A stretch of DNA of 64,000 bases from Polyangiaceae bacterium (GCA_046351455.1 JAXLYM010000003.1:216364-280363), one strand, 5' to 3'; positions 5,682 to 61,403 are shown, numbered from the stretch's first letter. A program made the numbers and translations. Notes: generated by a model from the sequence alone, not told the origin.

Positions 5682-5719
5682 TTTACAAGGGGGCTCCGCC
5701 CCCTCGTATCACTCCCCCG
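5682..5719 (+). repeat. copy 1 of a GC-hairpin repeat family (TTTACAAGGGGGC, loop, GCCCCCTCGTATCACTCCCCCG), 14 nt after the lipoprotein stop
   Basis: The sequence tttacaagggggctccgccccctcgtatcactcccccg has an 11-bp imperfect stem TAC(A/G)AGGGGGC/GCCCCCTCGTA. It is shared with the copies at 11439, 37859, 48524 and 61365 (the last is a reverse complement). Confidence 0.8.
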
Positions 5720-5737
5720 CTCCGCCAGCCTCTCTCG

Positions 5738-6841
5738 CTAGCTCTTGCTCATCAGCCGCTCGCGCAGGCGCAGGAACGGCTTCTCCACCACGTAGTACGA
5801 CGCGAGCGCGCACACGAACGAGAGCGCCAGGTTCTGCGGGAAGCGCGTGTACCAGGGGGCGTTCGGCGTCGCGGCTTGCAGGAAGGGCTGCTGCCACAAG
5901 TAGAGCGAGTAGCTCGTCGTGCCGATGAACATGAGCGGGCGCGAATTCAGGATGCGCCCCATGCGGCCGCCGGGGTAGCGCACGTAGCGGTAGATGATCA
6001 CGGCGACGCACGCGTTGAGGATCGTGTCGCCGAGCAGCCAGCCGAACCACGCGTGGTGCTCGAGACCCCACAGCGCCGCGTACGCCAGCGCGAACGCGCC
6101 CCACGACACGAGCGGCGATCCGAGCGCGCGCACCAGCCTCGGACGCGCGTCGATCCACGAGCGGCCGAGCGCCAGCGCGCAGCCCATCGCGAGCGCGTCC
6201 ATCACCGTCGGGAACGCCTCGTCGATCATGAAGCGCTGCTGCTTCGTGGTCCATTCGAGCGCCCAACCGACGCGGAACAACGGCGCGAGCACCACCGCCG
6301 CCGCGACCACCCAGATGCCCCGCTTGACGCCCGCCCAACGGAACGCGAGCGGCCACAGCAAATAGAACTGCTCCTCCACCGACAGCGACCACGCGTGGCC
6401 CACCCACCACGATCGATCGAGCCGGTAGTTGATCGCGTACGTCACCGCGAGGATCGCATCGATCCCCGACACGTGCGCGACGCCGAGCAGCGTGAGCACG
6501 CCGACCACCGCGAGGTAGAAATAGAACGGCGGGAAGATGCGGAAGAGCCGCTTCAGGTAGAACGAGCCGAGCGCGATGCTCCCCGTCTTGCGGATCTCCG
6601 ACAGGAGCAGCGACGTGATCAAGAACCCCGAGATCACGAAGAAGACGCGCACGCCGAAGCGCGCCACGTCGCCGATGCGGAGGAGCTTGTGGTACCGCTC
6701 CGTCTCCGGAAAACCCGCGGTCGCGCGCGCGTGTCCGTACAGGACGACCAGGATCGAGAGCGCGCGCAGACCATCGAGGGAGTGGATCCTCGAAGGGGCC
6801 GCCTCTGGTGCGGTCACGGACACAGCCGCTTGCGTTACCAC
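5738..6841 (-). CDS. acyltransferase family 3 (AT3, OafA/OatA-like membrane O-acyltransferase)
   Basis: The N-terminus has LDGLRALSILVVLYGH with a conserved His. There are ~10 predicted TM helices, and the motif FFVISGFLIT is characteristic of AT3. Confidence 0.85.
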   Translation of the reverse strand: MVTQAAVSVTAPEAAPSRIHSLDGLRALSILVVLYGHARATAGFPETERYHKLLRIGDVARFGVRVFFVISGFLITSLLLSEIRKTGSIALGSFYLKRLFRIFPPFYFYLAVVGVLTLLGVAHVSGIDAILAVTYAINYRLDRSWWVGHAWSLSVEEQFYLLWPLAFRWAGVKRGIWVVAAAVVLAPLFRVGWALEWTTKQQRFMIDEAFPTVMDALAMGCALALGRSWIDARPRLVRALGSPLVSWGAFALAYAALWGLEHHAWFGWLLGDTILNACVAVIIYRYVRYPGGRMGRILNSRPLMFIGTTSYSLYLWQQPFLQAATPNAPWYTRFPQNLALSFVCALASYYVVEKPFLRLRERLMSKS

Positions 6842-6858
6842 GTGCGCGCGCCGCGTTC

Positions 6859-7647
6859 ATGGAGCATTTGCGTAGCGATCTCGGCATGCCCCCCTCCACG
6901 AACGATTCGACCTCCGCCGCACCCGAGCGATCTGCGGCCTCGCGCGACGCCTGGCGCGGCCGGCTGCTCCGCGGATCCCTCCTCGTGAATACGGTCTTCG
7001 CGGTGGTCGCGCTGGGCGTCGGGGCGCGACGGCTGTGGAACGCGCGCAAACCATCGAGCGGCGACGTGTATGCGGAGGAGCGACGGAGCCTGCACGACGC
7101 GCTGCCCGCGCGGCCCGGCGCGATCGTCTTCCTCGGCGACAGCCTCACGGATCGCGGCGCGTGGAGCGAGATCTTCGGCGACGCGCGCATCGCGAACCGA
7201 GGCATCGCGGGCGACACGACGACCGGCATCCTCGCGCGGACCCCGCAGATCGCAGCGCAACGGCCGGCGAAGGTGCTCCTGTGCGCGGGCGTGAACGACC
7301 TCGGCGCGGGCGATCCGAACGACGCGATCGCCGCGCGGTATGGGGCGATCCTGGACACGTTCCGGAAGGCCTCTCCGGAGACGGCGCTCGTGTGCGAGAG
7401 CGTGCTGCCCGTGCGGCCGCCCCTCGCGCCCGCGGGCATGACGAACGACCGCATCCGCGCGCTCAACGAGGCGCTGCGGCGCGTCGCGGCGGATCGAGCG
7501 TGCACCTTCGTGGATCTGTGGCCGGCGCTCGCCGACGCGGACGGGGCGCTGCCGGCAACCTTCACGCTCGACGGCGTGCACCTCACGGGCGCAGGCTACG
7601 TAGCCTGGGCGCGCGCGATCGAGCCCTTCGTCCGAACGGCACGTTGA
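6859..7647 (+). CDS. SGNH/GDSL hydrolase with an N-terminal membrane anchor
   Basis: It carries the block-I motif IVFLGDSLTDRG (GDSL) and GVNDLG (block III), plus a C-terminal DGVHLT (the DxxH catalytic pair). The TM segment is LLVNTVFAVVALGV. The start could be MEHL at 6859 or MPPS at 6886. Confidence 0.8.
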   Translation: MEHLRSDLGMPPSTNDSTSAAPERSAASRDAWRGRLLRGSLLVNTVFAVVALGVGARRLWNARKPSSGDVYAEERRSLHDALPARPGAIVFLGDSLTDRGAWSEIFGDARIANRGIAGDTTTGILARTPQIAAQRPAKVLLCAGVNDLGAGDPNDAIAARYGAILDTFRKASPETALVCESVLPVRPPLAPAGMTNDRIRALNEALRRVAADRACTFVDLWPALADADGALPATFTLDGVHLTGAGYVAWARAIEPFVRTAR

Positions 7648-7737
7648 CCCCTCGCGGCCCGAACGGCTAAAAACAGGCCCTCTCTTCGCGTAAAGTGCGC
7701 CTGTCTCGTAACCCTGTCTCTCTCTTTCGGAGCACCG

Positions 7738-9798
7738 ATGCGCTGGTTCGTCGAGATTTCGCCCCTCGGAGCGAGTGAGGGCCAGAAGCAGAAGTGGTGC
7801 CTCGAAGCGGCCGGCTGGCAGCCCGCGCTCAAGGACGCGCGCGCGATCCGCGGCGAAGAAGGGCCGCTCGGCGGCTTCTCGATCGAGCTGCTCGACGACG
7901 GCGCGCGCGCGGTCGATCCGGTCACGCGCATCCGGTACGTGATCCGCAACGCGCCCGACGACGCGGCGCTCACGCATACGAAAGATGCTTCCGGGAAGCA
8001 CGCGCCGGTCAAATCGGATCTCGCGAAGGTCGAGCCGACGAAGACCGATCTCGCGAAGAGCGAGCCCGCGCAGACGGATCTCGCGAAGGTGACGCCGGCC
8101 CCGAAGGATCTCGCGAAGGTCGAGCCCACGAAGACGGATCTCGCGAAGAGCGAGCCCGCGAAGACGGATCTCGCGAAGGTCGAACCGACCAAGAGCGATC
8201 TCGTGAAGGTGGCCGCGCCCGAGGAGCCCGCGGGCGAGGACGTCGACATCCCCGTGGACGACGACGTGTCGGCGGCGCACCCGCTGCCCGACTACGAGAT
8301 CTTGCAGGAGCGCGAAGAGAACCCGAACGAGCGCACGCCGCTCACGTACCGCGAGTACGTGTACGCCGTCGCGGAGGGCACGCCGGATCGCGAGATCGAG
8401 CGGCTGATCCACGCGCGGTTCGCGATCGTGAAAGAGGCGCTCCGCGACGTGACGAACGGGCGCTTCGTGAACCTCGCGGTCTTCGATCACGTGTTCAGCG
8501 GCAAGCCGCAGCGGAGGCCGCGCGCGACGCTCACGTGGAAAGACTGGCGCGGCGAGCCCGAGATCCGCTTCCCCGCGGGCGATCGTTCGACCTTGGATCC
8601 AGCCTCTTTCGCGGCCCCGACGAGCTTCTCGAAGGCGGTGCCGCCGCCCTCCACCGCGGCCAACGCGCCGATGTCCGCCGTGCCCTCGACGGCGATGGCG
8701 CCGGAGCCGATGTCGTCCGTGCCTTCGACGGCCGTGGCCCCGACGGAGCCCGCGCTGCGTCCGATCGCCTCGCAGCCGCCGCCCGCATCGGAGCCGCCCG
8801 CGAGCGCGCCGAAGGCCGAGCGGATGCCCGAGGGCCCCGAGGCGCAGCGCACGCCGGAGCCGCCCGTGCTCATGACGGTGCCTCCGGTCGCCGAGCGCGC
8901 GCCCGCGATCGCGGCCGTTCCGAGCGGCCCCGTCACGGAGGTCGAGTCGACGGCGCCCGCTCCGCGCATGTCCGCGGCGCCCGCGACCGTGCCCGTGGCC
9001 TCGGGCGCGCCGGTGATGTCCGCGGCGCCCGTCGTGTCCGCGGCGCCGATGACGCCGGCCGCGACGACCGAGCCCTCGCCCACCGCCGAGCCGCGCGCGC
9101 TCAAGATCGAAGCGCCCGTGCAGGTGAAGATCGAGACCGCGCAGGCGTGGTCCCCGGTGAGCGCCGCGCCGAAGACGATGCCCGCCGCCGCGCCCGTCCC
9201 CGTGAAGCGCGAGGCCTACATCCCGCCGGTGAAGACGGCCGCGCAGGCCGGCAAGCGCAAGGCCGGCGACGATCTGATCAGCGAGCTGTTCGAGGCGTGC
9301 GGCGATCTCCATTTCCTCCGCGACAGCCTCGAAGGCGCGGATTTCGTCCTGTCGCTCGCGCTGGAGAAGCTGCCGAGCGAGATCGGCCTCGTCTCGCTCT
9401 TCGACATCAACCGCCGCGAATTCGTGGTCATTCGCCAGGCCGGCGGGCCGAAGAGCGTCGTGCTCGCGCGCCTCCCGGAGCGCGCCGGCCTCGCGCAGGC
9501 GGCGATGCGCAAGACGTCGGCGATCGTCGTGCCGGACGCCTCGAAGGAGCCGCGCGCGGTGGACGATCGGTTCCGCGCGCTCGGCGTGCAGCTCCGCAGC
9601 TTGATGGTGGCGCCGGTCGAGGTGTCGGGCCGCTACCTCGGCCTGATCGAGCTCGTGAACCCCGTCGACGGAAAGCCCTTCACCGAAGGCGACGGCCACG
9701 CCCTCACGTATATCGGAGAGCAATACGCCGAGTTCGTCGCGGAGCGCGGCGTCGTCCTCGATCCCGAGTCGGTGATCGAGCGGCACCAGAAGCGCTGA
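7738..9798 (+). CDS. GAF-domain protein with an octapeptide tandem-repeat region and a Pro/Ala-rich linker
   Basis: The C-terminal ~170 aa look like a GAF fold (LVSLFDINRREFVVIRQAGG...LIELVNPVDGKPFTEGDGHAL). The middle has 8 copies of (T/S)DLAK(V/S)EPxK. Its stop lies 1 nt before the histidine kinase start. Confidence 0.7.
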   Translation: MRWFVEISPLGASEGQKQKWCLEAAGWQPALKDARAIRGEEGPLGGFSIELLDDGARAVDPVTRIRYVIRNAPDDAALTHTKDASGKHAPVKSDLAKVEPTKTDLAKSEPAQTDLAKVTPAPKDLAKVEPTKTDLAKSEPAKTDLAKVEPTKSDLVKVAAPEEPAGEDVDIPVDDDVSAAHPLPDYEILQEREENPNERTPLTYREYVYAVAEGTPDREIERLIHARFAIVKEALRDVTNGRFVNLAVFDHVFSGKPQRRPRATLTWKDWRGEPEIRFPAGDRSTLDPASFAAPTSFSKAVPPPSTAANAPMSAVPSTAMAPEPMSSVPSTAVAPTEPALRPIASQPPPASEPPASAPKAERMPEGPEAQRTPEPPVLMTVPPVAERAPAIAAVPSGPVTEVESTAPAPRMSAAPATVPVASGAPVMSAAPVVSAAPMTPAATTEPSPTAEPRALKIEAPVQVKIETAQAWSPVSAAPKTMPAAAPVPVKREAYIPPVKTAAQAGKRKAGDDLISELFEACGDLHFLRDSLEGADFVLSLALEKLPSEIGLVSLFDINRREFVVIRQAGGPKSVVLARLPERAGLAQAAMRKTSAIVVPDASKEPRAVDDRFRALGVQLRSLMVAPVEVSGRYLGLIELVNPVDGKPFTEGDGHALTYIGEQYAEFVAERGVVLDPESVIERHQKR
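8013..8208 (+). repeat. 8 tandem copies of a 24-nt coding repeat (gatctcgcgaag gtc gag ccg acg aag acc), inside the GAF protein gene
   Basis: The 24-nt period is visible directly in the sequence. It translates to the DLAKVEPTKT/DLAKSEPAQT repeats. Confidence 0.85.
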
Positions 9799-9799
9799 C

Positions 9800-11395
9800 A
9801 TGCTGTCGCAGGGCACCGGCCGCAGGCTGTTCTACTTCGCGCTGGTGCCCGCGATCGTGCTCGCGGTGCTCGTGCTCGGCGGCATCGCGCTGCGGACCAC
9901 GCTGCAGATCGAGAAGGCGCGCCAGCAGACGGTCATCTCCGCCACGCTCGCGGTCGCGACGGAGCGCGTCGATCGCCTCGACAAGCTCGTGATCGAGCAG
10001 GACAACGTCGTCGCGGCGCACACGGATCTCGACAGCCTCCGCGCGATCGGGGACCGCTGGCTCCCGACGGCCGCGCGCGAGACGCCCACGGTGCGCGCGA
10101 TCCTGGTGCTCGACATGGATCACGCCGAGCACGAGGTCGCGGCGTTCGCCTCGCGCTCGCCCGGGCGCGACGACGATCTGTTCCGGCGCATCCTCGTGAC
10201 GCGGCTCTTCCCGCAGATGAACCTCGCGGGCAACACCGAGGAGCTGCGCCACCTGCACCACGTGCTCGACGGGCAGAGCTACCTCGTGAGCTACTGGCAG
10301 CGCTCGTACCTCGGGCGTCGCTACATGATCGTCGCGTGGCACGACGTGCGGCGCGTGGTGCACGACATCCTGCCGCGCCTCTACCGCGACATCGATCCGG
10401 GCAGCCGCATGAACGTGGTCGATGAGGACGGCCGCATCGTGTACGGCCCGCCGATCAAGGGCGGCGAGTTCACGGTCGGCCGGCCCTTCCCGACGACGCT
10501 CTACAACTGGCGCCTCCAGGTCGCGCTGACGACCGCCGAAGAGCTGGACACGAAGGTCGAGAAGCAGCGCTTCATCGAGGTGGCGATGGTCACGCTCGCG
10601 GGCGCCGTCGCGCTCGCGGGCCTCGCGATCGTCGTGCTCGGCGCGTCGAAGGAGCGACGATTGGCCGCGTTGAAGAGCGATTTCGTCGCGAACGTGTCGC
10701 ACGAGCTGAAGACCCCGCTCGCGCTGATCCGCATGTTCGGCGAGATGCTCTTTTTGGAGAAGGTCGCGACGCCCGAGAAGCGGCGGCAGTACCTCCAGAT
10801 CATCATGAGCGAGAGCGAGCGCCTCACCGCCCTGATCGAGAACGTGCTCGATTTCGCGAAGGTCGAGCGCGGAAAGGCCGCCTATTCGTTCGCGCCCGGA
10901 GACGTGGGAGAGGCCGTGTCGCGCGCCGTGGAGATCTTCTCGCACCGCGCCGAGCGTGAGGGCATGACGATCTCGCTTCGGGTCGCGCCGGATCTGCCGT
11001 CCGCGATGATCGACGCGCGCGCTCTGGAGCTCGCGAGCATCAACCTCATCGACAACGCCTTCAAGTACGCGAAGGACGGCGCGCGGGTCGACGTGGAGGT
11101 GACGAAGGCGGCCTCGCGCGTGCGGATCCGGGTGCGCGACCACGGCCCGGGCGTCGACGGGGACGACCGCGACCGCATCTTCGAGCGCTTCGTGCGCGGC
11201 AAGAACGCGAGCGGCACGCAGGTGCGCGGCAGCGGCATCGGCCTCGCGCTGGTGAAGCACATCGCCGAGAGCCACGGAGGCACCGTGACCGTGGAGAGCC
11301 CCGTCGAGGGCGGGAAAGGCTGCGCGTTCGTGATCGAGTTTCCGGCGCTCCCCACGTCGAGAGCGCCGGAGTTGCAGCCCGCGCCGGCGGAATAA
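9800..11395 (+). CDS. sensor histidine kinase (HisKA + HATPase_c) with an N-terminal TM anchor
   Basis: It has the H-box SHELKTPLALI. The N/G1/G2 boxes are NLIDNAFKYA, DHGPGV and GSGIGLALVK. There are TM helices at the N-terminus and near residue 250. Confidence 0.9.
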   Translation: MLSQGTGRRLFYFALVPAIVLAVLVLGGIALRTTLQIEKARQQTVISATLAVATERVDRLDKLVIEQDNVVAAHTDLDSLRAIGDRWLPTAARETPTVRAILVLDMDHAEHEVAAFASRSPGRDDDLFRRILVTRLFPQMNLAGNTEELRHLHHVLDGQSYLVSYWQRSYLGRRYMIVAWHDVRRVVHDILPRLYRDIDPGSRMNVVDEDGRIVYGPPIKGGEFTVGRPFPTTLYNWRLQVALTTAEELDTKVEKQRFIEVAMVTLAGAVALAGLAIVVLGASKERRLAALKSDFVANVSHELKTPLALIRMFGEMLFLEKVATPEKRRQYLQIIMSESERLTALIENVLDFAKVERGKAAYSFAPGDVGEAVSRAVEIFSHRAEREGMTISLRVAPDLPSAMIDARALELASINLIDNAFKYAKDGARVDVEVTKAASRVRIRVRDHGPGVDGDDRDRIFERFVRGKNASGTQVRGSGIGLALVKHIAESHGGTVTVESPVEGGKGCAFVIEFPALPTSRAPELQPAPAE

Positions 11396-11438
11396 GGCCT
11401 CTCCAAAACTCGATGTGCGCTCGTCGCTCTTCTGTCGG

Positions 11439-11477
11439 ATTTACAAGGGGGCGCTGCCCCCTCGTATCACTCCACCG
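11439..11477 (+). repeat. copy 2 of the GC-hairpin repeat family, 44 nt after the histidine kinase stop
   Basis: The sequence is atttacaagggggcgctgccccctcgtatcactccaccg. Confidence 0.8.
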
Positions 11478-11521
11478 CTGGTGGAACGGGATTCGATAAA
11501 TGCGGGGGTGAACAGCTCAAT

Positions 11522-12703
11522 TCAGGGCGATTTGTGCTGAAAGTCGGCGCGGTCGGAGACGCTCTGCGTGCCTTCGACGATCGCCTTCACCTCCGGGGTC
11601 ATGTCGCCGAGGACGTGGTATCTCGCGTAGGCGACGATCCAGGGGTTCACGATCGCGAAGCCTTCTTCGTCCGGCAAACCAGCGCACGTCACGTCTCCGA
11701 GCTGGGTGTTACCGAGGCCGAAGAGCTGGTGACAACCGCCGTCGACGTTCACCCACGTGAGGTCCACGCCGTCCATGTTGAGGAACAAGTTGTTCGCGCC
11801 GACCGGGTCGAGGGAGCCTGTCATCAGCAAGATGGGGAGTTTGGCTGATTTCTCGAGGTAACTGCCGAAGAAATCGTTGTGACCGCCCGCGAGCGGGGCC
11901 GCCATCTTCGCGCGCTTCTCCGTGAGATCCGTCGAGAAGACCGCGATCTCCTCCGGGGAGCACGGGGCCACCTCGCCTTTGTCACATTTGCTCTGGATGT
12001 TGACCAGATCGAAGGTGCCGCCCGCGATCGCCCACGCCGTGTACGTGCCGAAGCTGTGCCCCGTCATCCCGACGTGGTCCATGTCGAGCCTGCCAGTGAG
12101 CGGATCCCCGTCCGGCGGCGTCGCGGCCAGATCCAGCGCCGCGCGCACGTCGAGCGGGCGCTCGTAATACACCGCGAGCGGCAGCGGATCCGGCGTGTCA
12201 CCGATGGTGTTGCCCACGTGCTCCGGCGCGACTGCCACCCACCCGTGCGACGCGAAATGGCACATCAGACGAGCGCTGTTCCCCGCGAAGCCCTTGTATC
12301 CGTGCGAGTGCACGATCACCGGAAACCCTGCTTTCCACGGCGAATCCGCGAGCGGCACGTCCTCCCACGCGTGGTCGTCCTCGAAGAGGGCGCGGTACTT
12401 GGGGTGCTCGCCCTCCGCGACGCGGGACGGATACCACACGTGCACCGGGATCGTCCGATCGCCCTTGCCGGCCGGGAGCGCGTACGTCGTCTCCAGCACG
12501 CGGTGCCCGCAAGAATACGGCCCCTCCTCCAGCACGCTGTACGACAGCGGATCACCGATCGGCGTCGTGGTCGTGGTGGTGTCCGTCGTCGTGGTCGTGG
12601 TGCCGGAGCCGCTCGTCTCTCCGCCTCCGCAGCCCGCCGCGCCGGACGCGAACGCGGCAAAAAGGAACAACCCGAGAGCCGTCGCCTCACCCACTTTAGC
12701 CAT
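11522..12703 (-). CDS. alpha/beta-hydrolase lipoprotein (esterase/lipase, PAF-acetylhydrolase-like)
   Basis: It starts MAKVGEATALGLFLFAAFASGAAGCGG (a lipobox). A Thr-rich linker follows, then the nucleophile elbow GHSFG. The listed ORF extends to 12892, but that N-terminus is Arg-rich junk. Confidence 0.75.
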   Translation of the reverse strand: MAKVGEATALGLFLFAAFASGAAGCGGGETSGSGTTTTTTDTTTTTTPIGDPLSYSVLEEGPYSCGHRVLETTYALPAGKGDRTIPVHVWYPSRVAEGEHPKYRALFEDDHAWEDVPLADSPWKAGFPVIVHSHGYKGFAGNSARLMCHFASHGWVAVAPEHVGNTIGDTPDPLPLAVYYERPLDVRAALDLAATPPDGDPLTGRLDMDHVGMTGHSFGTYTAWAIAGGTFDLVNIQSKCDKGEVAPCSPEEIAVFSTDLTEKRAKMAAPLAGGHNDFFGSYLEKSAKLPILLMTGSLDPVGANNLFLNMDGVDLTWVNVDGGCHQLFGLGNTQLGDVTCAGLPDEEGFAIVNPWIVAYARYHVLGDMTPEVKAIVEGTQSVSDRADFQHKSP

Positions 12704-12771
12704 ACTGGCAAATACCCCTCTCGACGAACGCGCGTCAACGGTGGATCTGCCGTTGTGTCCGCGCGGCCGAA

Positions 12772-14424
12772 ATGCTCCCATCCTGGACCCTTCGCTCCAT
12801 GAAGAAGCCCCGCCTCCACCCCGGATGGGTCGCCTTGCCAGTGGCGCTCGCGCTCGCGGCCTGCGCTGATGAAGAGACGACCGCAAAGCCACCTCCCGCG
12901 GTCCCGGCCGTCGCCCCGGCCGCGCGGACTCCGCGCCTGACGGTCGCGCAGTATCGGAACGCGGTGCACGCGCTCTTCGGAGACGACATCGGCGTGCCGG
13001 CCGCGCTGGAGCCGGACACCAGCCTGGAAGGGTTCGTGTCGATCGGCTCGGCGGACAGCGCGGTCTCGCCGCGCGGCGTCGAACAGTACGAGGACGCCGC
13101 GTTCCACATCGCCGAACAGGCCCTCTCGACGGACGCCCGCAAGAAGGCGCTGGTGCCGTGTACGCCCCAAGGCCCGGCGGACGAAGCGTGCGCGAACGCC
13201 TTCATCCGCTCCCTCGCGCCGCGCGCGTGGCGGAGGCCCCTGTCGGACGAAGAGGTGACCACGCTCGTCGGCATCGTCACCAAAGCCGGCTCCACCCTGG
13301 GCGATTTCTATCAAGGGGCCCAGTTCGGGATCGCCGCGTTGATCGAGGCGCCGAGCTTCCTCTACCGCCCCGTCTTCGGCGAGGACGACCCGGATCACCC
13401 CGGATCGAAGCGCCTCACCGCCTACGAGCTGGCCAGTCGACTCTCCTTCTTCCTCTGGAACACCACCCCGGACTCCCAGCTTCTGGACGCCGCCGCGAAA
13501 GGCACCCTCCTCACGGACGAGGGCGTCACCGCCCAGGTGCAGCGCATGCTGGAAGATCCGCGCGCGCACGACGGACTCCGCAACTTCGTGACAGAGTATC
13601 TCCGGCTGGACGAGCTGGACGAGCTGTCGAAGGACCCGACGATCTTCACGTACTACAGCCCCGATGTCGGGCCCGCGGCGCGGGAGGAGACGCTCCTCGA
13701 TTTCGAGCGCGCCTTCGATCGAGGCGTGGATTACCGCGATCTCTACACGACGCGCACCACCTTCGTGAACCCGAAGCTCGCGTCGATGTATCAAGTCCTG
13801 GCGCCCAAGTCGGACGGCTTCGCCGAGGTGGAATTGCCCGGCGACATCCCGCGGCGCGGCCTGCTCGGGAACATCAGCATCCTCTCTCTGTACGCGCACC
13901 CCACGTCGTCTTCGGCCACGCTGCGCGGCAAATTGGTGCGAACGGTGCTGCTCTGCGGGGACGTGCCGCCGCCGCCGGTGAACGTGAACACGGCCCTTCC
14001 GGAGCCGAACCCGAACGCCGCGACGCTGCGCGACCGCGTGGCGGTCCACCTCGAAGATCCCTTTTGCGCGAACTGCCACCAGCACATGGACCCCATCGGC
14101 CTCGGGATGGAGAACTTCGACGGCATCGGCCGATACCGCGTGAAGGACAACGGGGCCATCATCGACGCGAGCGGCGATCTCGACGGCGTTCATTTCGAAG
14201 GGCCGAAGGACCTCGCGGCGGCCGTCGCGAAGCACCCGGATCTGCCAGGTTGCCTCACGCGGCGCGTCTATCAATATGCCACCTCCTCCAAAGGCGCCTT
14301 CCCGGAAGAGAAGGTGATCACGGCGCTCACGGCGCATTTCGCGGCCTCGGGCCACAAGGTGAAATCGCTGCTCGCGGCCGTCGCGACGAGCCCCGGCTTC
14401 CGGATGGTGGGAGAGGCGCAATGA
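12772..14424 (+). CDS. DUF1587/DUF1592/DUF1595/DUF1588/DUF1585-family protein (Planctomycete-type PSD/PSCyt-like) with a CxxCH haem-binding motif; lipoprotein signal
   Basis: LTVAQYRNAVHALFGDD is the DUF1587 signature. DPFCANCHQHMDPIGLGMENFDGIGRYR is the DUF1588 CxxCH block. The signal peptide ends in ALALAAC. Confidence 0.8.
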   Translation: MLPSWTLRSMKKPRLHPGWVALPVALALAACADEETTAKPPPAVPAVAPAARTPRLTVAQYRNAVHALFGDDIGVPAALEPDTSLEGFVSIGSADSAVSPRGVEQYEDAAFHIAEQALSTDARKKALVPCTPQGPADEACANAFIRSLAPRAWRRPLSDEEVTTLVGIVTKAGSTLGDFYQGAQFGIAALIEAPSFLYRPVFGEDDPDHPGSKRLTAYELASRLSFFLWNTTPDSQLLDAAAKGTLLTDEGVTAQVQRMLEDPRAHDGLRNFVTEYLRLDELDELSKDPTIFTYYSPDVGPAAREETLLDFERAFDRGVDYRDLYTTRTTFVNPKLASMYQVLAPKSDGFAEVELPGDIPRRGLLGNISILSLYAHPTSSSATLRGKLVRTVLLCGDVPPPPVNVNTALPEPNPNAATLRDRVAVHLEDPFCANCHQHMDPIGLGMENFDGIGRYRVKDNGAIIDASGDLDGVHFEGPKDLAAAVAKHPDLPGCLTRRVYQYATSSKGAFPEEKVITALTAHFAASGHKVKSLLAAVATSPGFRMVGEAQ

Positions 14425-15743
14425 TCAAGAAACTGAACCGCCGCGCCGTCTTGCGCGGCCTCTTCGGCGGCGCGCTGGTGTCGATCGGCCTGCCCACGCT
14501 GGAGGCCTTCCTGACGGACAACGGCTCCGCCTACGCGGGCGGGGACGCGTTCCCGACGCGATTCGGCATCTTCTTCTGGGGCAACGGCAACCTGCCCGAG
14601 AAATGGGTCCCCGCGGGCACCGGCCCCGAGTGGGAATTGACCGAACAACTGGCCCCTTTGGCTTCGGTCAAACAGCATATCACCGTCGTCAGCGGGATGA
14701 AGGTGATGACGGGAAACGAAGTGCCGCACGGCTCCGGCCCGGTCGGCATGCTCTCCGGCGCTCCGTTCCCCACGGGCGACACATCCACGTTCGCATTGCC
14801 CAGCATCGACCAGGTGATCGCGAACGCCATCGGGCAGGAGACGCGCTTCAAATCCCTCGAATGCGGCGTGCAACCCGGCGGGGAGAGCCGCTCGTACAAC
14901 GGGCCTCACTCCAACAACCCGCCGGAGACGTCGCCCGCGGCCTTCTTCAACCGCGTGTTCGGCGCAGGCTTCGTGTTGCCCGGCACCAACACCACGCCGG
15001 ACCCGAAGCTCGCGTTGCGCCAGAGCATCCTCGACTCGGTCAAATCCGACGCGAAGCGCCTTCAAGACAGGCTCGGCGCCGCGGACAAGGCCCGTCTCGA
15101 TCAGCACCTCGAAGGCGTGCGCGCGCTGGAGAAGCAGATCCAGAAGCTCCAGGAAAACCCGCCGAGCCTCGCGGCGTGCGCGGTGCCGAAGACGCCGGAC
15201 GAGGACTATCCGGACATCGACGGACGGCCGCAGATGTCGGTCCGTTCGCGCGTGATGGCCGACATCCTCACGATGGCCATCGCCTGCGATCAGACGCGCG
15301 TGTTCTCGGACTGGTTCTCCACCCCGGTGAACAACCTGCTTTATCCTGCGACGACGGCGGGGCACCACCAGCTCACGCACGACGAGCCGGATCCGCAGCC
15401 TCAAGTGAACAGCATCGTGATTTACCAGATCACCGAGCTGGCCTATCTCATCAACGCGCTCGCGAGCGTGCAGGAGGGCGACGCGACGCTGCTCGACCGG
15501 ATGGCGCTCCTCTGCACGACGGACGTCGGGTACGCGCGGGCGCACTCCATCGAGGAGTATCCGATCCTCATCGCCGGGTCCGCGGGCGGCAAGCTCAAGG
15601 AGGGTGTGCACTACCGCTCTCCGGCCAGCGAGAACACGAGCAAGGTGCTCCTCACGCTGGCGCGCGCGATGGGCCTCGCGATGGACTCGTACGGAGACGG
15701 ACCCGGCATGGTGACGAGCAGCCTCTCCGCGATCGAGGTGTGA
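14421..15743 (+). CDS. DUF1552-family protein, the cognate partner of DUF1592 proteins; Tat-like signal
   Basis: It starts MIKKLNRRAVLRGLFGGALVSIGLPTLEAF (an RR motif). Its ATG overlaps the upstream stop as ATGA. The listed ORF 13158..15743 is the same frame with an artefactual N-terminus. Confidence 0.75.
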   Translation: MIKKLNRRAVLRGLFGGALVSIGLPTLEAFLTDNGSAYAGGDAFPTRFGIFFWGNGNLPEKWVPAGTGPEWELTEQLAPLASVKQHITVVSGMKVMTGNEVPHGSGPVGMLSGAPFPTGDTSTFALPSIDQVIANAIGQETRFKSLECGVQPGGESRSYNGPHSNNPPETSPAAFFNRVFGAGFVLPGTNTTPDPKLALRQSILDSVKSDAKRLQDRLGAADKARLDQHLEGVRALEKQIQKLQENPPSLAACAVPKTPDEDYPDIDGRPQMSVRSRVMADILTMAIACDQTRVFSDWFSTPVNNLLYPATTAGHHQLTHDEPDPQPQVNSIVIYQITELAYLINALASVQEGDATLLDRMALLCTTDVGYARAHSIEEYPILIAGSAGGKLKEGVHYRSPASENTSKVLLTLARAMGLAMDSYGDGPGMVTSSLSAIEV

Positions 15744-15744
15744 C

Positions 15745-16632
15745 ATGGCGCTTCGAGAGAGCCTGTTTGCCGCCGCCTGCGGATTCTCCCTCTTCGCGCT
15801 CGGGTGCACGGACATGGACAGCGCCCCTCCCGGCCCGGACGAGGGGCCGAATTGCGGGCACACCCAGCGTCACGCGTACGTGATCTCGACGCTGGGGTTC
15901 ACGCGCGTCGACAAGGACACCGGGACCGTGCCCGGCTTCGATCTGGATCACAAGGTCAGCGGGGACGACGACGAGGCGTCCTGCTTCAAGAAGGACTTCG
16001 TCTCCGCGGACGGGACGAAGGGCGTCGACAACCAGCTCGCGGGCCTCATCCCCGACGTGGAGAAGCTCCTCGGCAACGCGGTGGACGGGCTCATCCAGGG
16101 CGCCATCAACAACGGCGATCTCCTGATCCTGTTCGACGTCGACGGCGCGAAGAGCGTTCAGAATGCGGGCTGTGCGGACGTCACCGTGAAGCTCGGCACG
16201 GGCAAGCCGATCCTCGGGACGGACGGAGTGATGGAGGCCTATCAGACCTTCGACGTGGACCCGTCCGGCGAGGTGAGCCACGGCACGCTCGGCAAGATCG
16301 AGGACGGCGTGCTCACGATTGGCCCCTTCGAGCTGGCCATTCCGATCGCGATCTTCGACGTGGCCTTCACCATCCACGTGCACGACGCGCTGATCCGCGC
16401 GCAGGTGAGCGCGGAGGACGGCGTCCTGAAAGAGGGCCTCGTCGGCGGCGGCGTGGTGCCGAAAGAGATCCTGGACGGCGTCGCCCCCGGCGCGGGCGTC
16501 GACAAATACATCCCGACCCTCACTCTGGTGTTGAACGGCTCCACCGATCTCGCGCAGGACAGCGAGGGCACGTGCACGCAGCTCTCCGCGGCCCTCAAAG
16601 TGACGCTCGTGGAGGCCTTCATCCGCGAGTGA
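15745..16632 (+). CDS. lipoprotein, hypothetical (third gene of the DUF1592/DUF1552 operon)
   Basis: Its start lies 1 nt after the upstream stop. The signal is LFAAACGFSLFALGCTD (a lipobox). Confidence 0.55.
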   Translation: MALRESLFAAACGFSLFALGCTDMDSAPPGPDEGPNCGHTQRHAYVISTLGFTRVDKDTGTVPGFDLDHKVSGDDDEASCFKKDFVSADGTKGVDNQLAGLIPDVEKLLGNAVDGLIQGAINNGDLLILFDVDGAKSVQNAGCADVTVKLGTGKPILGTDGVMEAYQTFDVDPSGEVSHGTLGKIEDGVLTIGPFELAIPIAIFDVAFTIHVHDALIRAQVSAEDGVLKEGLVGGGVVPKEILDGVAPGAGVDKYIPTLTLVLNGSTDLAQDSEGTCTQLSAALKVTLVEAFIRE

Positions 16633-16708
16633 GCGCTGCCCGCGGATTTTTCCGACAGGATCATTGCGCACCTCTTGAATCCGGACCGCCGCGGGGCGAA
16701 ATGGGCCC

Positions 16709-19700
16709 ATGGCAGCTCCGGTCGCTCGGCGCTTCGCGCGCTGGCTCGCATTCGTCTTCACCTTCGCCGCATGCTGGCTCTCCGGCCGCGCGGCGCTCGC
16801 CACCACGATCCCCGGTGGCAACATCATCAACCAGACATGGACTCCGGCAGGCAATCCGTACCTGATTCAGGGTGACGTCACCGTCCCCTCGGGCGCCTTC
16901 CTGACGATCCAGGCCGGCACGATCGTCCAGTTCGCGAACAGCGATGGTCAGCTCGCGGGCCTCGACACGACGCGCGTCGAGATGACGATCAAAGGCACGC
17001 TCAACGTCAACGGCGTTCAGGGCAACCCGGTGGCCTTCTCCGGGCAGGCCGGCGCCGGCACGTCGGCGTGGTACGGTGTCGTGATCGACGCGGCCGCCAC
17101 GACGGCGGGCTTCACCTACGCCACGTTCCAGCACGCGCAGCGCATCGTGCGCAATTCGGCGCCGGGCACGGTGCTCTCGATGAGCAACGTCACCGTGACC
17201 AACTCGGCCAACGGCGTCGAGCTGCTCGCCGGCACTCCCACGCTCACGAGCCTGGACATCACCGGCGGGAGCTACGGCCTCAGCAGCTCCGGCAACGCGG
17301 CCCCGAACATCCAGTCGTCCACCTTCAAGAGCCAGACGTCCCAGGGGCTCGCGCTCTCTCCGACGACGGGCTCCCCGGCGATCACGGTGCAGAACACGAT
17401 CGTCACGGGCGCCGCGTTCTACGGCATCACGTTCGTGACCGATCTCAGCTCGAATTCCACGCTCGCGGTCACCAACACCACGGTCCACGGAAACGGGAGC
17501 TACGGTATCTACGTCGCCGCCTACAGCAGCAGCACCGCGACGCTGAACCTCAAGAACAGCATCGTCACGCAGCACCAGTACGGCGTCTTCAACTACAACG
17601 CGGCCGGCACCGAGATCATCAACGTCACGTACTCGGACGTCTGGAACAGCACCTCTGCCAACTACACGAACTGCTCCGGCGGGACTGGCGCCTTCTCGTC
17701 CAACCCTCTTTACGTGAGCGCCCCGACGAACATGCGGCTCACGTCCAACTCCCCTGCTCGGTTCGCGGGCGACACCCTCGCAGACATCGGTCCTCTGCCG
17801 TACGTGAACGACGCGACGCCCGGGTTCCACGGCACTTTGTGGACGAACACCACGTTCGGCGTCGCGGGGTCGCCGTACACCATCCAGGGGGACACGACGA
17901 TCCCGCCGGGCGTCATCGTCACGATCGATCCCGGCGTCACCATCCGCTGGACGGCCGGCACCGACATCATGGGATCCGGCCAGGATACGGGCCGTGGGGA
18001 GCTGCGGGTCCAGGGCACGCTGCAGGCGATCGGCACCGCGGCGCAGCCCATCACGCTCACGTCGACCGGGGCCGCCGCCGCGCAGCAGTGGACCGGCGTG
18101 ATCGGGCTCGCGGGCGCGACGGCGATGGCGCTCGGCTACGTGAACATCTCCAACGCCGACTCCGCGGTTCAGTCCTTCTTGACCGGAAACGCCTTCAGCG
18201 CGAGCCGGATCACCGTCACCACGTCCACGCGCGGGTTCGAGGTGCGCGCCGGAACACCCACGCTGACCGGCGTCGACGTGACCGGCGGCACGACGGGGCT
18301 CACGACGACGGGCAGCGCCGCCCCCACGATCCAGGCCTCCATCTTCAAGAGCCAGACGTCCCAGGGCCTCTCGATCGCCCCCACGGCCGGCAGCGGCACG
18401 ACGACGATCGTGAACACCATCGTGCGCGGCGCCGCGTTCTACGGCATCACGATGGTGACGGACCTCAGCGCGGTCGCGACGCTCAACCTCACGAACTCCA
18501 CGATCCACGGCAACGGGTCCTATGGAGTCTACATCGCGGCGTACTCCAGCAGCACCGCGAACGTGGCGATCAAGAACACGCTCGTGACGCAGCATCAATA
18601 CGGCGTCTTCAACTACAACGCGGCCGGGACCGAGATCGTGACCACCACGTACTCGGACGTCTGGAACAACACCTCTGCCAACTACACCAACTGCTCGGCC
18701 GGCACGGGCAGCATCTCGCAGAACCCGCTCTACGTGAGCCCGCCCACGGATCTGAAGCTCCAGAGCTTCAGCGTCTGCATCGACGCGGGCACGGCCACGG
18801 GCGCTCCGGCCACCGACTTCGACGGAGCGACTCGGCCCATGGACGGCGACGGCATCAACGGCGCGGCCTTCGACATGGGCGCGTACGAGCTCGCGGCGGC
18901 GGCCTCCTGCGGCGACGGCATCGTGAACAACGGCGAGGTGTGTGACAGCGGCGCTCAGAATGGCATGTACGGCGCGTGCAAGGCGGACTGCTCCGGCCTC
19001 GGCCCGCGCTGCGGCGACTCCATCGTGAACGGCCCCGAGCAGTGCGACGACGGCAACGTCAGCAACACCGACGCTTGCCTCAACACCTGCCAGAACGCAG
19101 CCTGCGGGGACGGCTTCGTCCGCGCCGGCATGGAGATGTGCGACGACGGCAACATGAGCAACACCGATGCTTGCCTCAACACCTGCGTCCCGGCCTCGTG
19201 CGGGGACAGCTTCGTGCAGGCGGGCGTCGAGCAGTGCGACGACGGCAACCAGGTCAACACCGACGCTTGCCTGACGACGTGCATGAACGCGACGTGCGGT
19301 GACGGCTTCCTCCGCGCGGGCGTCGAGCAGTGCGACGACGGCAATCAGATCAACACCGACGCTTGCCTCAGCACCTGCCAGAACGCGACCTGCGGGGACG
19401 GCGTGGTCCGCGCGGGCGTCGACCAGTGCGACGACGGCAACGCCAGCAACACGGATAACTGCCTGAATACATGCAACAACCCCACTTGCGGCGACGGCTT
19501 CGTCCACACGGGCGTCGAGCAGTGCGACGACGGCAACCAGGTCAACACCGACGCTTGCCTCAACACCTGCCAGAACGCGATCTGCGGGGACGGCGTGGTC
19601 CGCGCGGGCGTCGAGCAGTGCGACGACGGCAACCCGGTCAACACCGATGCTTGCCTCAACACCTGCCAGAACGCCACGTGCGGTGACGGCATCGTGCAGG

Positions 19701-20974: not shown

Positions 20975-21059
20975 TCAAAGCCAGAAGCCCCCGGCGGAGT
21001 GTGCCGTCGGGGGCCTCATCACGACAAGGCACCTCGCCTCTTCTCTCGACAGCCTCTCT

Positions 21060-23671: not shown

Positions 23672-23674
23672 CCG

Positions 23675-25830: not shown

Positions 25831-25900
25831 TCAGAATACGGACTGTTCATTTCGGGAGGGGAATCAGAGCGCGATGCAGATCGGCCGAGATGCGTCGCGC

Positions 25901-37070: not shown

Positions 37071-37215
37071 TTCACATCCTGCAACAGTCCATTGTCAACG
37101 GCGCGGATTGTTTCACCGCCGTCGGAGCGCATATTCGGGCTCGGAGCGGCGATGACCGCCGTCTCCAAAGGAACGGCTCGAGGCCAATCTCGGCCTCCGA
37201 TCTGGAGAGAATGCC

Positions 37216-37836: not shown

Positions 37837-37858
37837 GGGTTCGTCGGTATTGGGGTGG

Positions 37859-37908
37859 GACTTACAAGGGGGCTCCGCTGGCTCCGCCCCCTCGTATCAC
37901 TCCCCCGC
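37859..37908 (+). repeat. copy 3 of the GC-hairpin repeat family (12-nt loop), 23 nt after the PNPOx-like stop
   Basis: The sequence is gacttacaagggggctccgctggctccgccccctcgtatcactcccccg. Confidence 0.8.
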
Positions 37909-37917
37909 CGCGGGCGC

Positions 37918-48521: not shown

Positions 48522-48523
48522 GG

Positions 48524-48562
48524 GTTTACAAGGGGGCAAAGCCCCCTCGTATCACTCCCCCG
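48524..48562 (+). repeat. copy 4 of the GC-hairpin repeat family, 3 nt after the stop of 47526..48521
   Basis: The sequence is gtttacaagggggcaaagccccctcgtatcactcccccg. Confidence 0.8.
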
Positions 48563-48590
48563 ATCGCCTACGAAACAAGGCTAGTTACGT

Positions 48591-49667
48591 TCAGCTCTTC
48601 GCGTTGAGCCGCGATGGGGGGCCGCCGGCGCGCGCGAGCTTCTCCTCCACCATCAGGTCGGCGACGCGGTACGTCGGCGTCAGCGTCTTCATGCTGCGCT
48701 CCGCGATCTCGTGGATCGTGTCGTAGATCTTCAGCGTGCGATCGCGGCTGATCGTCGCGTCGTAGCCGGCCACCTCCTGCGCGACGTTGATCAGGCCGCC
48801 CGCGTTGATCGCGTAGTCCGGCGCATAGAGGATGCCGCGCGCGTTGAGGTCGTCGCCGTGACGCGGCTCGTGGAGCTGGTTGTTCGCGGCGCCCGCGACG
48901 ATGCGCGCCTTGATCCGCGGCACCGTCTCGTCGTTCATCGCCGAGCCCAGCGCGCACGGCGCGATCACGTCGCACTCCACGTCGAAGATGCGATCGAGCG
49001 GGACGATCTCCGCCCCGAATTCACGCTGCGCGCGCTCGCTCTTCAGCGGATCGACGTCGGCCACGGAGAGCTTCGCGCCGCACGCCACGAGCTCCTTGCA
49101 CAGGTGATATCCGACGTGGCCCACGCCCTGGACCGCGACGTGGATGCCTTCGAGCGAGGCGCGACCGAGCTTGAGCTTCACGCACGCCTCGATGCCTTTT
49201 CGCACGCCGAGCGCCGTGAACGGCGACGGATCGCCGGAGCCGCCGTGCTGCGCGCCGACGCCCGTCACGTGCTTCGTTTCGAGGCGGATGAGCTCCATGT
49301 CCTCGAGCCCCGTGCCCGAGTCCTCCGCGGTGATGTAGCGCCCGCCGAGCGCCTCCACGAAGCGGCCGAACGCGAGGAACAGCGCCGCGCGGTCGAACAC
49401 GGGCTCCGCCGGGCGCAAAAGCACGCTCTTGCCGCCGCCGTGCGGGACGCCGCAGAGCGCCGCTTTGTACGTCATGCCGCGGGCGAGCCGGAGCGCGTCG
49501 ACGAGCGCGTCCTCGTCCTTCGCGTACGCAAGGAACCGGCACCCGCCGAGCGCCGGCCCGAGGCGCGTGTCGTGGATCGCGACGATCGCCCGCATCTTCG
49601 ACGCTGGATCGCGGCCGAGGTGAACTTCGCCGTAGTCGTAGCTCGCGAGGTGCCCGAAGACGTCCAT
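48591..49667 (-). CDS. Glu/Leu/Phe/Val dehydrogenase family, most likely leucine dehydrogenase
   Basis: It starts MDVFGHLASYDYGEVHL, which matches the Leu-DH N-terminus. KAALCGVPHGGGKS contains the catalytic Lys. The NAD motif is GVGHVGYHL. It is ~358 aa. The listed ORF extends to 50441. Confidence 0.85.
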   Translation of the reverse strand: MDVFGHLASYDYGEVHLGRDPASKMRAIVAIHDTRLGPALGGCRFLAYAKDEDALVDALRLARGMTYKAALCGVPHGGGKSVLLRPAEPVFDRAALFLAFGRFVEALGGRYITAEDSGTGLEDMELIRLETKHVTGVGAQHGGSGDPSPFTALGVRKGIEACVKLKLGRASLEGIHVAVQGVGHVGYHLCKELVACGAKLSVADVDPLKSERAQREFGAEIVPLDRIFDVECDVIAPCALGSAMNDETVPRIKARIVAGAANNQLHEPRHGDDLNARGILYAPDYAINAGGLINVAQEVAGYDATISRDRTLKIYDTIHEIAERSMKTLTPTYRVADLMVEEKLARAGGPPSRLNAKS

Positions 49668-51346: not shown

Positions 51347-51391
51347 CAGGGATCCTGATGCCCTCTCGGGGCACGATTCAGAGTGCCAGTC

Positions 51392-60582: not shown

Positions 60583-60674
60583 CCGGCCCGTGCGGGGGGG
60601 CGTGGATGGATCTGCCGGCGGGCGTGCTGTTCGGGGATGACGAGGAGTCGCCTGCCGCGGACTCCGGAGGGTGA

Positions 60675-61322
60675 TCAGGCGCGGCGGAGGGCGCGGCGGG
60701 CGAGCGCTCCGAGGCCGAGCAGGGCGGCCGCGGCCCACAGCATGTAGATGGTCACTCGCTTGATCACCGTGACCACACAGGCCACCTGAACCAGGCTGTC
60801 GAGGCGCTCCGGGTATTTGCCCACGATGATCGAGAGGAGCACGTTCTCGATGAGATCGGAGCCGTACGCCACGAGGAACACGAGGACCGCGGCCGCCCGA
60901 TATCGACTCTCCGGGCCGAAGTGCTTTCGCAGCAGGACGAGGATGATGAACAGGAAGGTGAGGTTGAACAGGAACGGCGCGAGCGTGTCGAGCGTGAAGG
61001 CGTTGATGATGTAGAAGGTGCGCACGTCGTCGCCGTACTTCGCGATCATCGCGTACGCCTCGTCCGGCGTGTACGTGTTCTTCATGTCGAGCGGCCCCGC
61101 GTCCGGGGAGTGCGCCCGAATGCGCGTGATCGCCCAGGACAAGGGCGCGATCCCGAATACGAGGCTCGCGAGGAAGCCATAGAGGATGTGACGCCCGGTG
61201 GCGTATCGATCCGCGAACGCGGTGAGCCGTTTAAGCATGGCGGCGAGGATACGCCCCCTCGGCGCGCGTGGCGGTTTTTCACGCGGAGCGAAGGCCGGGG
61301 CCGCCACCTCAGCGCTCGTCAC
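60675..61322 (-). CDS. hypothetical integral membrane protein (4-5 TM)
   Basis: The hydrophobic helices are ILYGFLASLVFGIAPLSWAI, LAPFLFNLTFLFIILVLL and AAAVLVFLVAYG. I see no motifs. Confidence 0.45.
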   Translation of the reverse strand: MTSAEVAAPAFAPREKPPRAPRGRILAAMLKRLTAFADRYATGRHILYGFLASLVFGIAPLSWAITRIRAHSPDAGPLDMKNTYTPDEAYAMIAKYGDDVRTFYIINAFTLDTLAPFLFNLTFLFIILVLLRKHFGPESRYRAAAVLVFLVAYGSDLIENVLLSIIVGKYPERLDSLVQVACVVTVIKRVTIYMLWAAAALLGLGALARRALRRA

Positions 61323-61364
61323 GTCTCCCTCGTCGAAGCCTTTTCCGACCGCCCGTTTCGTCAG

Positions 61365-61403
61365 CGGGGGAGTGATACGAGGGGGCGGAGCCCCCTTGTA
61401 AAT
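61365..61403 (-). repeat. copy 5 of the GC-hairpin repeat family, reverse orientation, ~80 nt downstream of the stop of the minus-strand gene 61486..63900
   Basis: cgggggagtgatacgagggggcggagcccccttgtaaat is the reverse complement of the consensus. Confidence 0.8.

Follow-up and report, generated by a model that had tools for sequence, protein, structure and literature searches.

Near-identical hairpin repeats at gene 3' ends in an uncultured myxobacterium: a probable lineage-restricted family resembling repetitive extragenic palindromes

Myxobacterial genomes are large and repeat-rich. Here we describe a family of short GC-rich hairpin repeats in a 64-kb stretch of DNA (hereafter, the window; G+C 68.8%) from Polyangiaceae bacterium, an uncultured myxobacterium (GCA_046351455.1, JAXLYM010000003.1:216364-280363). 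The window is ordinary chromosome, with genes for RecQ, an RseP-like M50 protease, an M28 peptidase, PGA_cap and leucine dehydrogenase (LeuDH), and it is syntenic with relatives. Five near-identical copies of the element, 39-50 bases long, lie in it at the positions given by an earlier note on this DNA, and all five are intergenic. The gene map was derived from codon usage and checked by Pfam, and the gene ends around the copies were fixed by exact matches to the deposited annotation, which were obtained for six genes of the window (MFO0587124.1, MFO0587128.1, MFO0587148.1, MFO0587149.1, MFO0587158.1 and MFO0587167.1).

Four of the five copies are located between convergent genes, as the earlier note had claimed and as both Pfam and the exact annotation matches bear out. 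Copy 1 (core 5682-5719, feature 5675..5721, plus strand) occupies a 69-nt gap between a hypothetical gene at 4676-5668 (+, MFO0587124.1) and an Acyl_transf_3 gene at 5738-6823/6841 (-), and the 126-nt gap of copy 2 (core 11439-11477, feature 11420..11500, plus strand) separates a histidine kinase gene at 9800-11395 (+, MFO0587128.1) from a hydrolase gene at 11522-12694 (-). Copy 3 (core 37859-37908, feature 37840..37915, plus strand) is found in an 81-nt gap flanked by a PNPOx gene at 37216-37836 (+, MFO0587148.1) and a MoxR ATPase gene at 37918-38973 (-, MFO0587149.1), while copy 4 (core 48524-48562, feature 48522..48563, plus strand) lies in a 69-nt gap between a hypothetical gene ending at 48521 (+) and the LeuDH gene at 48591-49667 (-, MFO0587158.1). 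Copy 5 (core 61365-61403, feature 61352..61430, minus strand) is in a 247-nt gap between tandem genes, 82 nt past the stop of a gene at 61486-63921+ (-); the next gene, at 60675-61238 (-, MFO0587167.1), starts (61238) 126 nt further on. The spacing between copies is 5.8-26 kb, the closest neighbour being 5.7 kb off. The gene upstream of copy 5 (61486-63921+) has internal tandem repeats of 36 nt and 42 nt (62528-62651 and 63047-63204); its homologues align over just ~30-37% of the query, and no identical entry was found.

When abutting or overlapping genes are left out, the element occupies 4 of the 13 convergent gaps in the window, none of the ~12 divergent ones and 1 of the ~20 tandem ones (hypergeometric p ~0.013 when gaps are counted and ~0.006 when their lengths are used). 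The position bias on which the earlier note had remarked is real within the window: gaps between two gene 3' ends are enriched in copies, and no copy is embedded in a coding region. The orientation of the copies is a different matter. The note had them always in forward orientation, 3-83 nt past the stop codon of a gene on the same strand; each copy does follow such a stop, at measured distances of 13, 43, 22, 2 and 82 nt, but in a convergent gap the element has a same-strand stop upstream of it whichever way it points, so that for four of the five copies forward orientation is automatic and uninformative. The convergent copies are no nearer to the same-strand stop than to the opposite one (13/18, 43/44, 22/9 and 2/28 nt for copies 1-4). 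In tandem contexts orientation is mixed, with copy 5 forward and the copies found in two other contigs (L001 and L002, described below) apparently reverse, the genes there being inferred from open reading frames (ORFs) and G+C content at third codon positions (GC3) only. The L001 copy lies between two genes on the plus strand, a TetR-like gene ending at 3357 and a lipoprotein gene starting near 3843, and the L002 copy has an upstream plus-strand gene at 308-853. The GC skew of the window is too flat to show a replication-strand bias of the copies.

The existence of the five copies is clear from direct reading, from a word count and from a covariance model. The 18-mer GCCCCCTCGTATCACTCC, which belongs to the 3' half of the element, occurs five times in 64 kb, with 0.08 occurrences expected from dinucleotide shuffles (0/100 shuffles reach five); all five occurrences are mismatch-free and there is no other in the window even at three mismatches. 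A covariance model made from eight copies gives the five copies of the window 71.1, 67.8, 60.5, 66.1 and 71.9 bits, in order, and, reverse-strand palindrome echoes aside, 9.1 bits to the next best match. The distance between 60-72 and less than 10 bits means that the family is sharply bounded and that there are no degenerate or decayed copies in these 64 kb. Nine copies are considered in all, the five of the window and those of L001, L002, L003 and L018.

The consensus reads (G)GR-TT-TAC-A-AGGGGGC / loop / GCCCCCT-C-GTA-TCAC-TCC(C/A)CCG and can be expressed as the split-arm pattern TTACAAGGGGGC-N(3-300)-GCCCCCTCGT. A unit of ~45 nt thus consists of a G-rich 5' edge (GGGGA, GGGA or GGA), TT, the 5' arm TAC-A-AGGGGGC, a centre, the 3' arm GCCCCCT-C-GTA, and then TCAC-TCCCC-CG. 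The loops are as first described, namely TCC in copy 1, GCT in copy 2, the 12-nt TCCGCTGGCTCC in copy 3, AAA in copy 4, and GGA on the plus strand, i.e., TCC on its own strand, in copy 5. The stem, taken by the earlier note to be of 11 bp, is conserved over that length and is made of 10 Watson-Crick pairs and one mismatch, which in every copy is A.C on the tail-bearing strand. The opposite strand has a G.U wobble at this position, and therefore the RNA hairpin of that strand is the more stable one (centroid energies of -22.8 vs -15.9 kcal/mol). The 3' tail is not strictly invariant, as had been claimed, since copy 2 has CTCCACCG. Nor is it necessarily single-stranded. A G-rich stretch of 5-6 nt precedes TTTAC in 7/9 copies (CGGGG, which lies just 5' of copy 1, GGGGTGGGA, GAGGG, TGGGGA twice and TCGGA twice); these flanks are complementary to TCCCC of the tail, and in the minimum free energy folds of copies 1, 3 and 4 flank and tail are paired. 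The tail is therefore, judging by these folds, probably the 3' strand of a weak outer helix, and the whole unit would be a ~45-nt imperfect palindrome with an asymmetric internal loop (TT / TCAC).

What is conserved in the element is its sequence. The earlier note saw in the conserved stem and the variable loop a signature of selection on secondary structure, which is not borne out: 10/10 pairs are invariant in eight distinct copies, so that the covariation score is 0 and uninformative either way. The conservation extends to the mismatch and to the part 3' of the stem, and as a feature of the sequence it points to common descent, homogenisation or sequence-specific recognition. Some copies are alike well outside the hairpin as well. 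Similarity continues past the core between copies 2 and 5 (61 nt at 89%) and between copies 3 and 5 (50 nt at 76%), the common extensions being TTCGTCGG..TTTTGTCGGA (5') and CTGACGAAACGGG (3'). In copy 2 the extended flanks are TCGTCG..TTCTGTCGGA (5') and CTGGTGGAACGGG (3'), in copy 5 they are TTCGTCGGCGTTTTTGTCGGA ... CTGACGAAACGGG, and the 5' extension of copy 3, TTCGTCGGTATTGGGGTGGGA, is related to that of copy 5. It follows from these shared flanks that the thing copied is a stretch of DNA and not merely a structure.

The position of the copies could also be accounted for by transcription termination. The copies could be dedicated U-poor, bidirectional terminators, factor-independent or assisted by NusG/Rho, or 3' mRNA stabilisers, each kept by selection as both convergent genes need a 3' hairpin. 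Four of the five copies lie 2-44 nt from the stops of convergent genes, and the hairpin is highly stable on both strands; both facts are in line with this, as is the complementary strand, on which UUGUAAAU comes after the GC stem. Each of the nine convergent gaps of the window without a copy has a unique GC-rich hairpin of its own (e.g., 20987-21014, 25867-25902 and 51347-51391), and canonical terminators with a U-tract are not enriched in this genome (11 found vs 9.1 expected). The convergent gaps are thus plausibly a niche for hairpins, in which the repeat may substitute for a private one. A gap orthologous to that of copy 4, in the sister-species locus L006, is strongly self-complementary too, yet no more than its own shuffles (z -0.06 and -0.75). 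An element of this kind would resemble the bidirectional, U-poor, "I-shaped" intrinsic terminators of high-GC bacteria in having a stable GC stem-loop right after the stops of convergent genes.

A terminator, however, needs a structure and not a fixed sequence of 35 nt, and here it is the sequence that is kept, including the mismatch, the part 3' of the stem and, in copies 2 and 5, the long flanks, with no covariation. As the earlier note had said, there is no U-tract on either strand: the sequence after the stem is UCGUAUCACU on one strand and UUGUAAAU on the other, neither orientation passes a scan for a hairpin plus U-tract, and copies 1 and 2 went unreported on either strand in a scan of 1-20000 for a hairpin and a T-run. 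Orientation is mixed in tandem gaps, copy 5 sits 126 nt upstream of the next gene start in a 247-nt gap, sister species have no element at the same sites, and the orthologous copy in L018 contains a core of 101 nt. Finally, termination accounts for a possible function of the element once it is present and not for its being a repeat family with shared flanks that is present in some relatives and absent from others. For these reasons we regard termination or stabilisation as an unlikely explanation of the family. Among the private hairpins, that at 20987-21014 (+) has an unrelated 11-bp GC stem, GCCCCCGGCGG-AGTGTG-CCGTCGGGGGC, and is followed by CTCATCAC, which resembles the CGTATCAC found after the GC stem of the repeat; the common ATCAC is probably a coincidence.

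The centre of the element is its most variable part. In copy 3 the loop has the appearance of a tandem duplication of 9 nt (GGCTCCGC-T-GGCTCCGC), and across the family loops of 3, 4, 12 and 101 nt occur. Such different lengths are compatible only with pairing of the arms within one strand, and they do not fit a dimeric protein that reads two half-sites in duplex DNA. The latter would be expected if the inverted repeat AGGGGGC-N3-GCCCCCT were a double-stranded, operator-like site for a nucleoid-associated or regulatory protein that marks the 3' ends of genes. The two inverted half-sites are indeed perfectly conserved, and in 6/9 copies they are separated by an unconstrained 3-nt spacer. Spacers of 4, 12 and 101 nt in copies that are otherwise intact would, however, destroy the half-site geometry; there is no copy in a divergent, i.e., promoter-containing, gap, and the asymmetric sequence conserved outside the half-sites would be left unexplained. 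We consider an operator of this type highly improbable.

Other known types of elements were compared and set aside. A promoter (TTTACA ... TATCAC) would have a spacing of 19-28 nt that varies with the loop, and a scan of 1-20000 gave no promoter-like site. The consensus is devoid of the R''/R' core sites (RYYYAAC ... GTTRRRY) of an integron attC, and the copies are dispersed, at intervals of 5.8-26 kb, among housekeeping genes syntenic with relatives. Solitary CRISPR repeats and a coding reading were ruled out on sequence and context. Rfam searches of the window, L001-L003 and the L018 gap, at gathering as well as relaxed thresholds and E-values, returned nothing relevant.

The same element, for which the earlier note had proposed to search other myxobacteria, was found in L001, a contig of a Myxococcota metagenome-assembled genome, with the loop TTGC, at one locus at least among the matches listed in a scan of genome contigs. 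Two metagenome contigs contain one true copy each, L002 with the loop TCC and L003 with the loop GCT. The copies of L001-L003 are identical to those of the window in arms and tail and are found at unrelated loci. A viral scan and a plasmid BLAST gave 0 matches each. Half-matches in two further metagenome contigs, L004 and L005, reach 11-12 bits and were taken as chance or relics; that of L005 is in an ORF with coding-like GC3. In L002, a 14-nt partial 5' arm (GGATTTACAAGGGGCG) lies at 961-974 (-), 30 nt upstream of the complete copy, and may be a relic or the result of a local rearrangement. In L001, a 41-nt direct repeat, 90% identical (3510-3550 and 3795-3835), brackets the intergenic stretch that holds the copy, the second repeat being just upstream of the start of the lipoprotein gene.

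No copy was detected, by pattern or by model, in ~140 kb of sister-species loci (L006-L017), in which the relevant proteins are 89-94% (LeuDH), 81-89% (the ABC ATPase of L001) and 71% (the neighbour of copy 5) identical at the amino acid level. The gap orthologous to that of copy 4 contains unrelated sequence without the element in L006-L008 and L017, and the same is true of the gap orthologous to that of the L001 copy in L014. A search with the ABC ATPase from L001 gave no taxonomic signal. A putative diverged orthologue of copy 5 in L013 (TACGGGAGGGC-TCCC-GCCCCCCGT, with apparent compensatory changes) was rejected, as it scores 7.5 bits and local alignments as good or better arise by chance in coding DNA of other loci. 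In L015, a direct repeat of ~120 nt, the last 97 nt of which are identical, flanks a 303-aa gene at 8796-9707 (~8700-8860 and ~9800-9960, -), and the GGTGCAAGGGGGCCTCTCGTGTC within it bears a superficial likeness to one of the element's arms.

A long form of the element was found in L018, which has the closest LeuDH relative found (97% amino acid identity, in the same cluster as LeuDH of the window). The L018 gap orthologous to that of copy 4 contains GGGGATTTACAAGGGGGC, then 101 nt, then GCCCCCTCGTTCCACTCCCCCG, i.e., the same two arms with a 101-nt palindromic core in place of a 3-nt loop. The whole L018 stretch of 156 nt folds as one long imperfect hairpin (-45.1 kcal/mol as DNA, z -3.56, 0/200 shuffles). 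At the centre of the core, GCGGAGC-TTG-GCTCCGC, TGGCTCCGC is common with the 12-nt loop of copy 3 and GGCTCCGC is common with the copies that have a TCC loop, and these shared words suggest that the variable loops may be remnants left after remodelling of the centre of a longer palindrome.

The long form raises the possibility that the element is a true MITE (miniature inverted-repeat transposable element), with the arms as terminal inverted repeats of a longer, DDE-type non-autonomous transposon; the ~140-nt form in L018 would then be nearer to full length and the 39-nt copies would be its internal-deletion derivatives. The same arms around a 101-nt interior, the 8-9-mers that loops share with the centre of this interior, the flanks shared by several copies beyond the core and the pattern of presence and absence among relatives are all compatible with this. 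Like MITEs and the repeats of Correia, RPE and ERIC type, the element is non-coding, dispersed and bounded by an inverted repeat, with length variants that share their ends (39-50 vs ~140 nt in L018). Unlike them, it is much shorter, the unit of 39 nt being below the usual size of a MITE, and its inverted repeat is subterminal, with asymmetric ends (GGGGATT vs TCACTCCCCCG). There is no target-site duplication or flanking direct repeat at any of the nine copies, a single long copy was found, and its 101-nt interior matches nothing else in the ~0.4 Mb compared. The window has no related autonomous element and no transposase with such ends, and we know of no such transposase. A MITE in this strict sense therefore appears improbable.

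Copy 3 is at the right edge of a 1.8-kb segment (36117-37932, with LysR and PNPOx genes) that is missing in the relatives L019 and L020, where the stop codons of the MoxR and DUF2252 genes abut directly. Bacterial interspersed mosaic elements (BIMEs) and repetitive extragenic palindromic (REP) sequences likewise lie at strain-specific segments (PMC1525189). In the region of copy 3 there is also a bacterial homologue of the eukaryotic major vault protein (30758-33244, -; MVP_shoulder 5.6e-31, Vault_3 2.6e-06), whose neighbours are a DUF2201 VWA/metallopeptidase gene (33335-34828, -), a DUF2252 gene (34900-36120, +) and the MoxR AAA ATPase gene (37918-38973, -); these four genes are adjacent in L019.

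The intergenic region that holds copy 5 contains a 19-mer, CGCGGAGCGAAGGCCGGGG, at 61282-61300, which is identical to L018 ~4200-4218 (-), in the mosaic beside the long copy (BLAST E 3e-4 in ~0.4 Mb) and which, as a sequence match, may represent a third small repeat or a further component of the mosaic. A second repeat family consists of 22-nt tandem units with an internal palindrome (TGGTGAAnnCGTTCAC...), located at 86-284, 3424-3510 and 4201-4290 of L001 and at 4302-4343 of L018. The 22-nt motif has nine exact matches in the 4.5 kb of L001, and two units adjoin the long element of L018; in the window it has no exact match and four matches with two mismatches, at least two of them inside genes. 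The common 22-nt family suggests that L001, although labelled Myxococcaceae, may belong to the same clade as the organism of the window. By their sequences, the 22-nt tandem motif, the 19-mer and the element beside the L018 copy form what looks like a BIME-like mosaic.

Taken as observed, the element is lineage-restricted, near-identical from copy to copy, intergenic, indifferent to orientation and enriched in gaps between gene 3' ends; its centre is plastic, and it occurs together with other small repeats and at an indel boundary. The best reading, and in our view a probable one, is that it is a lineage-restricted, REP-like, dispersed imperfect palindrome of uncultured Polyangiaceae that spreads or is homogenised as DNA. 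The earlier note had left a choice between a U-less terminator or stabiliser of RNA 3' ends, a REP-like site and a small mobile element of MITE type; the evidence favours the REP-like/MITE-like end of this range. The family is a new one, but it is an ordinary kind of genomic repeat and not a new kind of element.

REP sequences, or palindromic units (PUs), have been grouped into superfamilies tagged with GTAG or CGTC (Di Nocera et al. 2013, PMC3733652). The present element is likewise a short, GC-rich imperfect palindrome of the 20-40 bp class that is able to fold (10 bp and a mismatch, with loops of 3-12 nt), and it is lineage-specific. The near-identical copies counted are five in 64 kb and others in four other contigs, nine in total. 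Its conserved unpaired or partly paired sequence is confined to one side of the stem, as in REPs, and it shares with them the association with indel boundaries and the mosaic arrangement with other small repeats. It is extragenic and close to gene 3' ends. REPs lie mostly between convergent and unidirectional ORFs, those between convergent ORFs being within ~20 bp of both 3' ends (PMC3733652). The distribution of the copies over the gaps of the window is the one reported for REPs, and therefore supports a REP-like nature of the element.

Several points weigh against this assignment. There is no unpaired GTAG or CGTC tag adjoining the stem of the consensus, and such tags at one end define most of the REPs described (PMC3733652); in their place the element has a one-sided conserved part, TCACTCCCCCG (or CGGGGGAGTGA on the other strand), on the 3' side, on the strand with the A.C mismatch. 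Every copy seen stands alone, and there are no inverted dimers of the REPIN or BIME kind. Among the ~50 genes of the window, Pfam found no Y1/HUH (Y1_Tnp) or other transposase, and so no REP-associated tyrosine transposase (RAYT) is seen in the 64 kb checked; nor was any gene seen that is flanked by copies of the element. The centre has room for 101 nt, and no single simple deletion or insertion would turn the short form of the orthologous site into the long one, L018 having nothing that corresponds to the AAA loop. Intergenic flanks are too divergent to be aligned, and neither a clean empty site nor a target duplication can be delimited. The sample consists of nine copies, from which the genome-wide copy number is extrapolated, and a role of the element at the RNA level is purely inferred. 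The literature searched did not contain the sequence of the element or anything relevant on myxobacterial REPs or RAYTs, and a text search of the survey of GTAG/CGTC-tagged REP families and of the RepRanger survey found no mention of myxobacteria.

Some REPs are mobilised by RAYTs, which are transposases of Y1/HUH type. If the element is REP-like, it could spread as DNA through transposition of the single-stranded hairpin by an enzyme acting in trans, following the logic of RAYTs or of IS200/IS605-like HUH enzymes, and/or through gene conversion between copies. The most economical route would be a trans-acting HUH/Y1 enzyme that recognises the single-stranded hairpin and a short adjacent sequence, as proposed for REPs. 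The element would survive only where it is harmless, i.e., 3' of genes, and its centre would be remodelled by deletion or insertion at the centre of the palindrome. Once transcribed, from either strand, the hairpin would probably act as a 3'-end stem-loop that weakly terminates transcription or hinders exonucleases; this would be a secondary use or by-product, as has been suggested for REPs elsewhere.

The geometry of the element resembles that of the subterminal hairpin at the right end of IS200/IS605 elements. Both are imperfect palindromes with a fixed irregularity, and for both no terminal inverted repeats or target duplications are expected. In IS608, cleavage at the right end takes place 10 nt 3' of the foot of the hairpin, at a site recognised by a guide of 4 nt located 5' of the foot (PMC3201880); in the element, ~4-6 nt 5' and 11 nt 3' of the foot are conserved. 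Unlike an IS200/IS605 element, it has one hairpin per unit, no left end and no tnpA/tnpB. The likeness is geometric only, with no pairing of guide and cleavage site established and no HUH enzyme found in the DNA examined.

A more far-reaching version of the REP-like reading, which we hold to be rather unlikely, is that the family belongs to a third kind of tagged REP besides the GTAG and CGTC superfamilies, with its own recognition sequence (TCACTCCCCCG, the 11 nt 3' of the foot), its own putative single-strand DNA enzyme in Myxococcota and a centre that is a hot spot for revision and insertion. The hot spot would in that case explain why the same orthologous copy differs between a species with a 3-nt loop and its 97% relative with a palindromic core of 101 nt.

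Small palindromic repeats shape bacterial chromosomes: they mark hot spots of recombination and insertion, punctuate operons and confuse gene callers and assemblers. As a probable REP-like family, the element extends a known class to a new phylum-level group and leaves current concepts unchanged. It could be used as a genotyping and lineage marker for this clade of uncultured Polyangiaceae, and it could provide candidate 3'-end elements in a group where canonical terminators appear rare. If the recognition sequence is real, it is a starting point for finding the mobilising enzyme. The most interesting detail is the orthologous pair of a short and a long form, a natural example of a palindrome whose centre turns over while its arms stay fixed.

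Three other features of the window were recorded in passing. The ORF at 16709-20974 (+) encodes a protein of 1421 aa in which a cysteine-rich repeat of 96 nt (32 aa; ..C..C..C..CGD-like) occurs ~16 times in tandem at 18912-20680, the copies being 60-86% identical. The gene pair at 12799-15743 (+) belongs to the Planctomycetes-type PSD/PSCyt (DUF1585-1595) and DUF1552 (HXXSHH) families. An AAA_21/AAA_15 ATPase gene (AbiEii-like, of RecF/SMC type) at 22418-24415 (+) is followed 3 nt later by a gene for 246 aa without a Pfam match; the two may form a defence-type module, next to which is a 286-nt convergent gap with a long hairpin.

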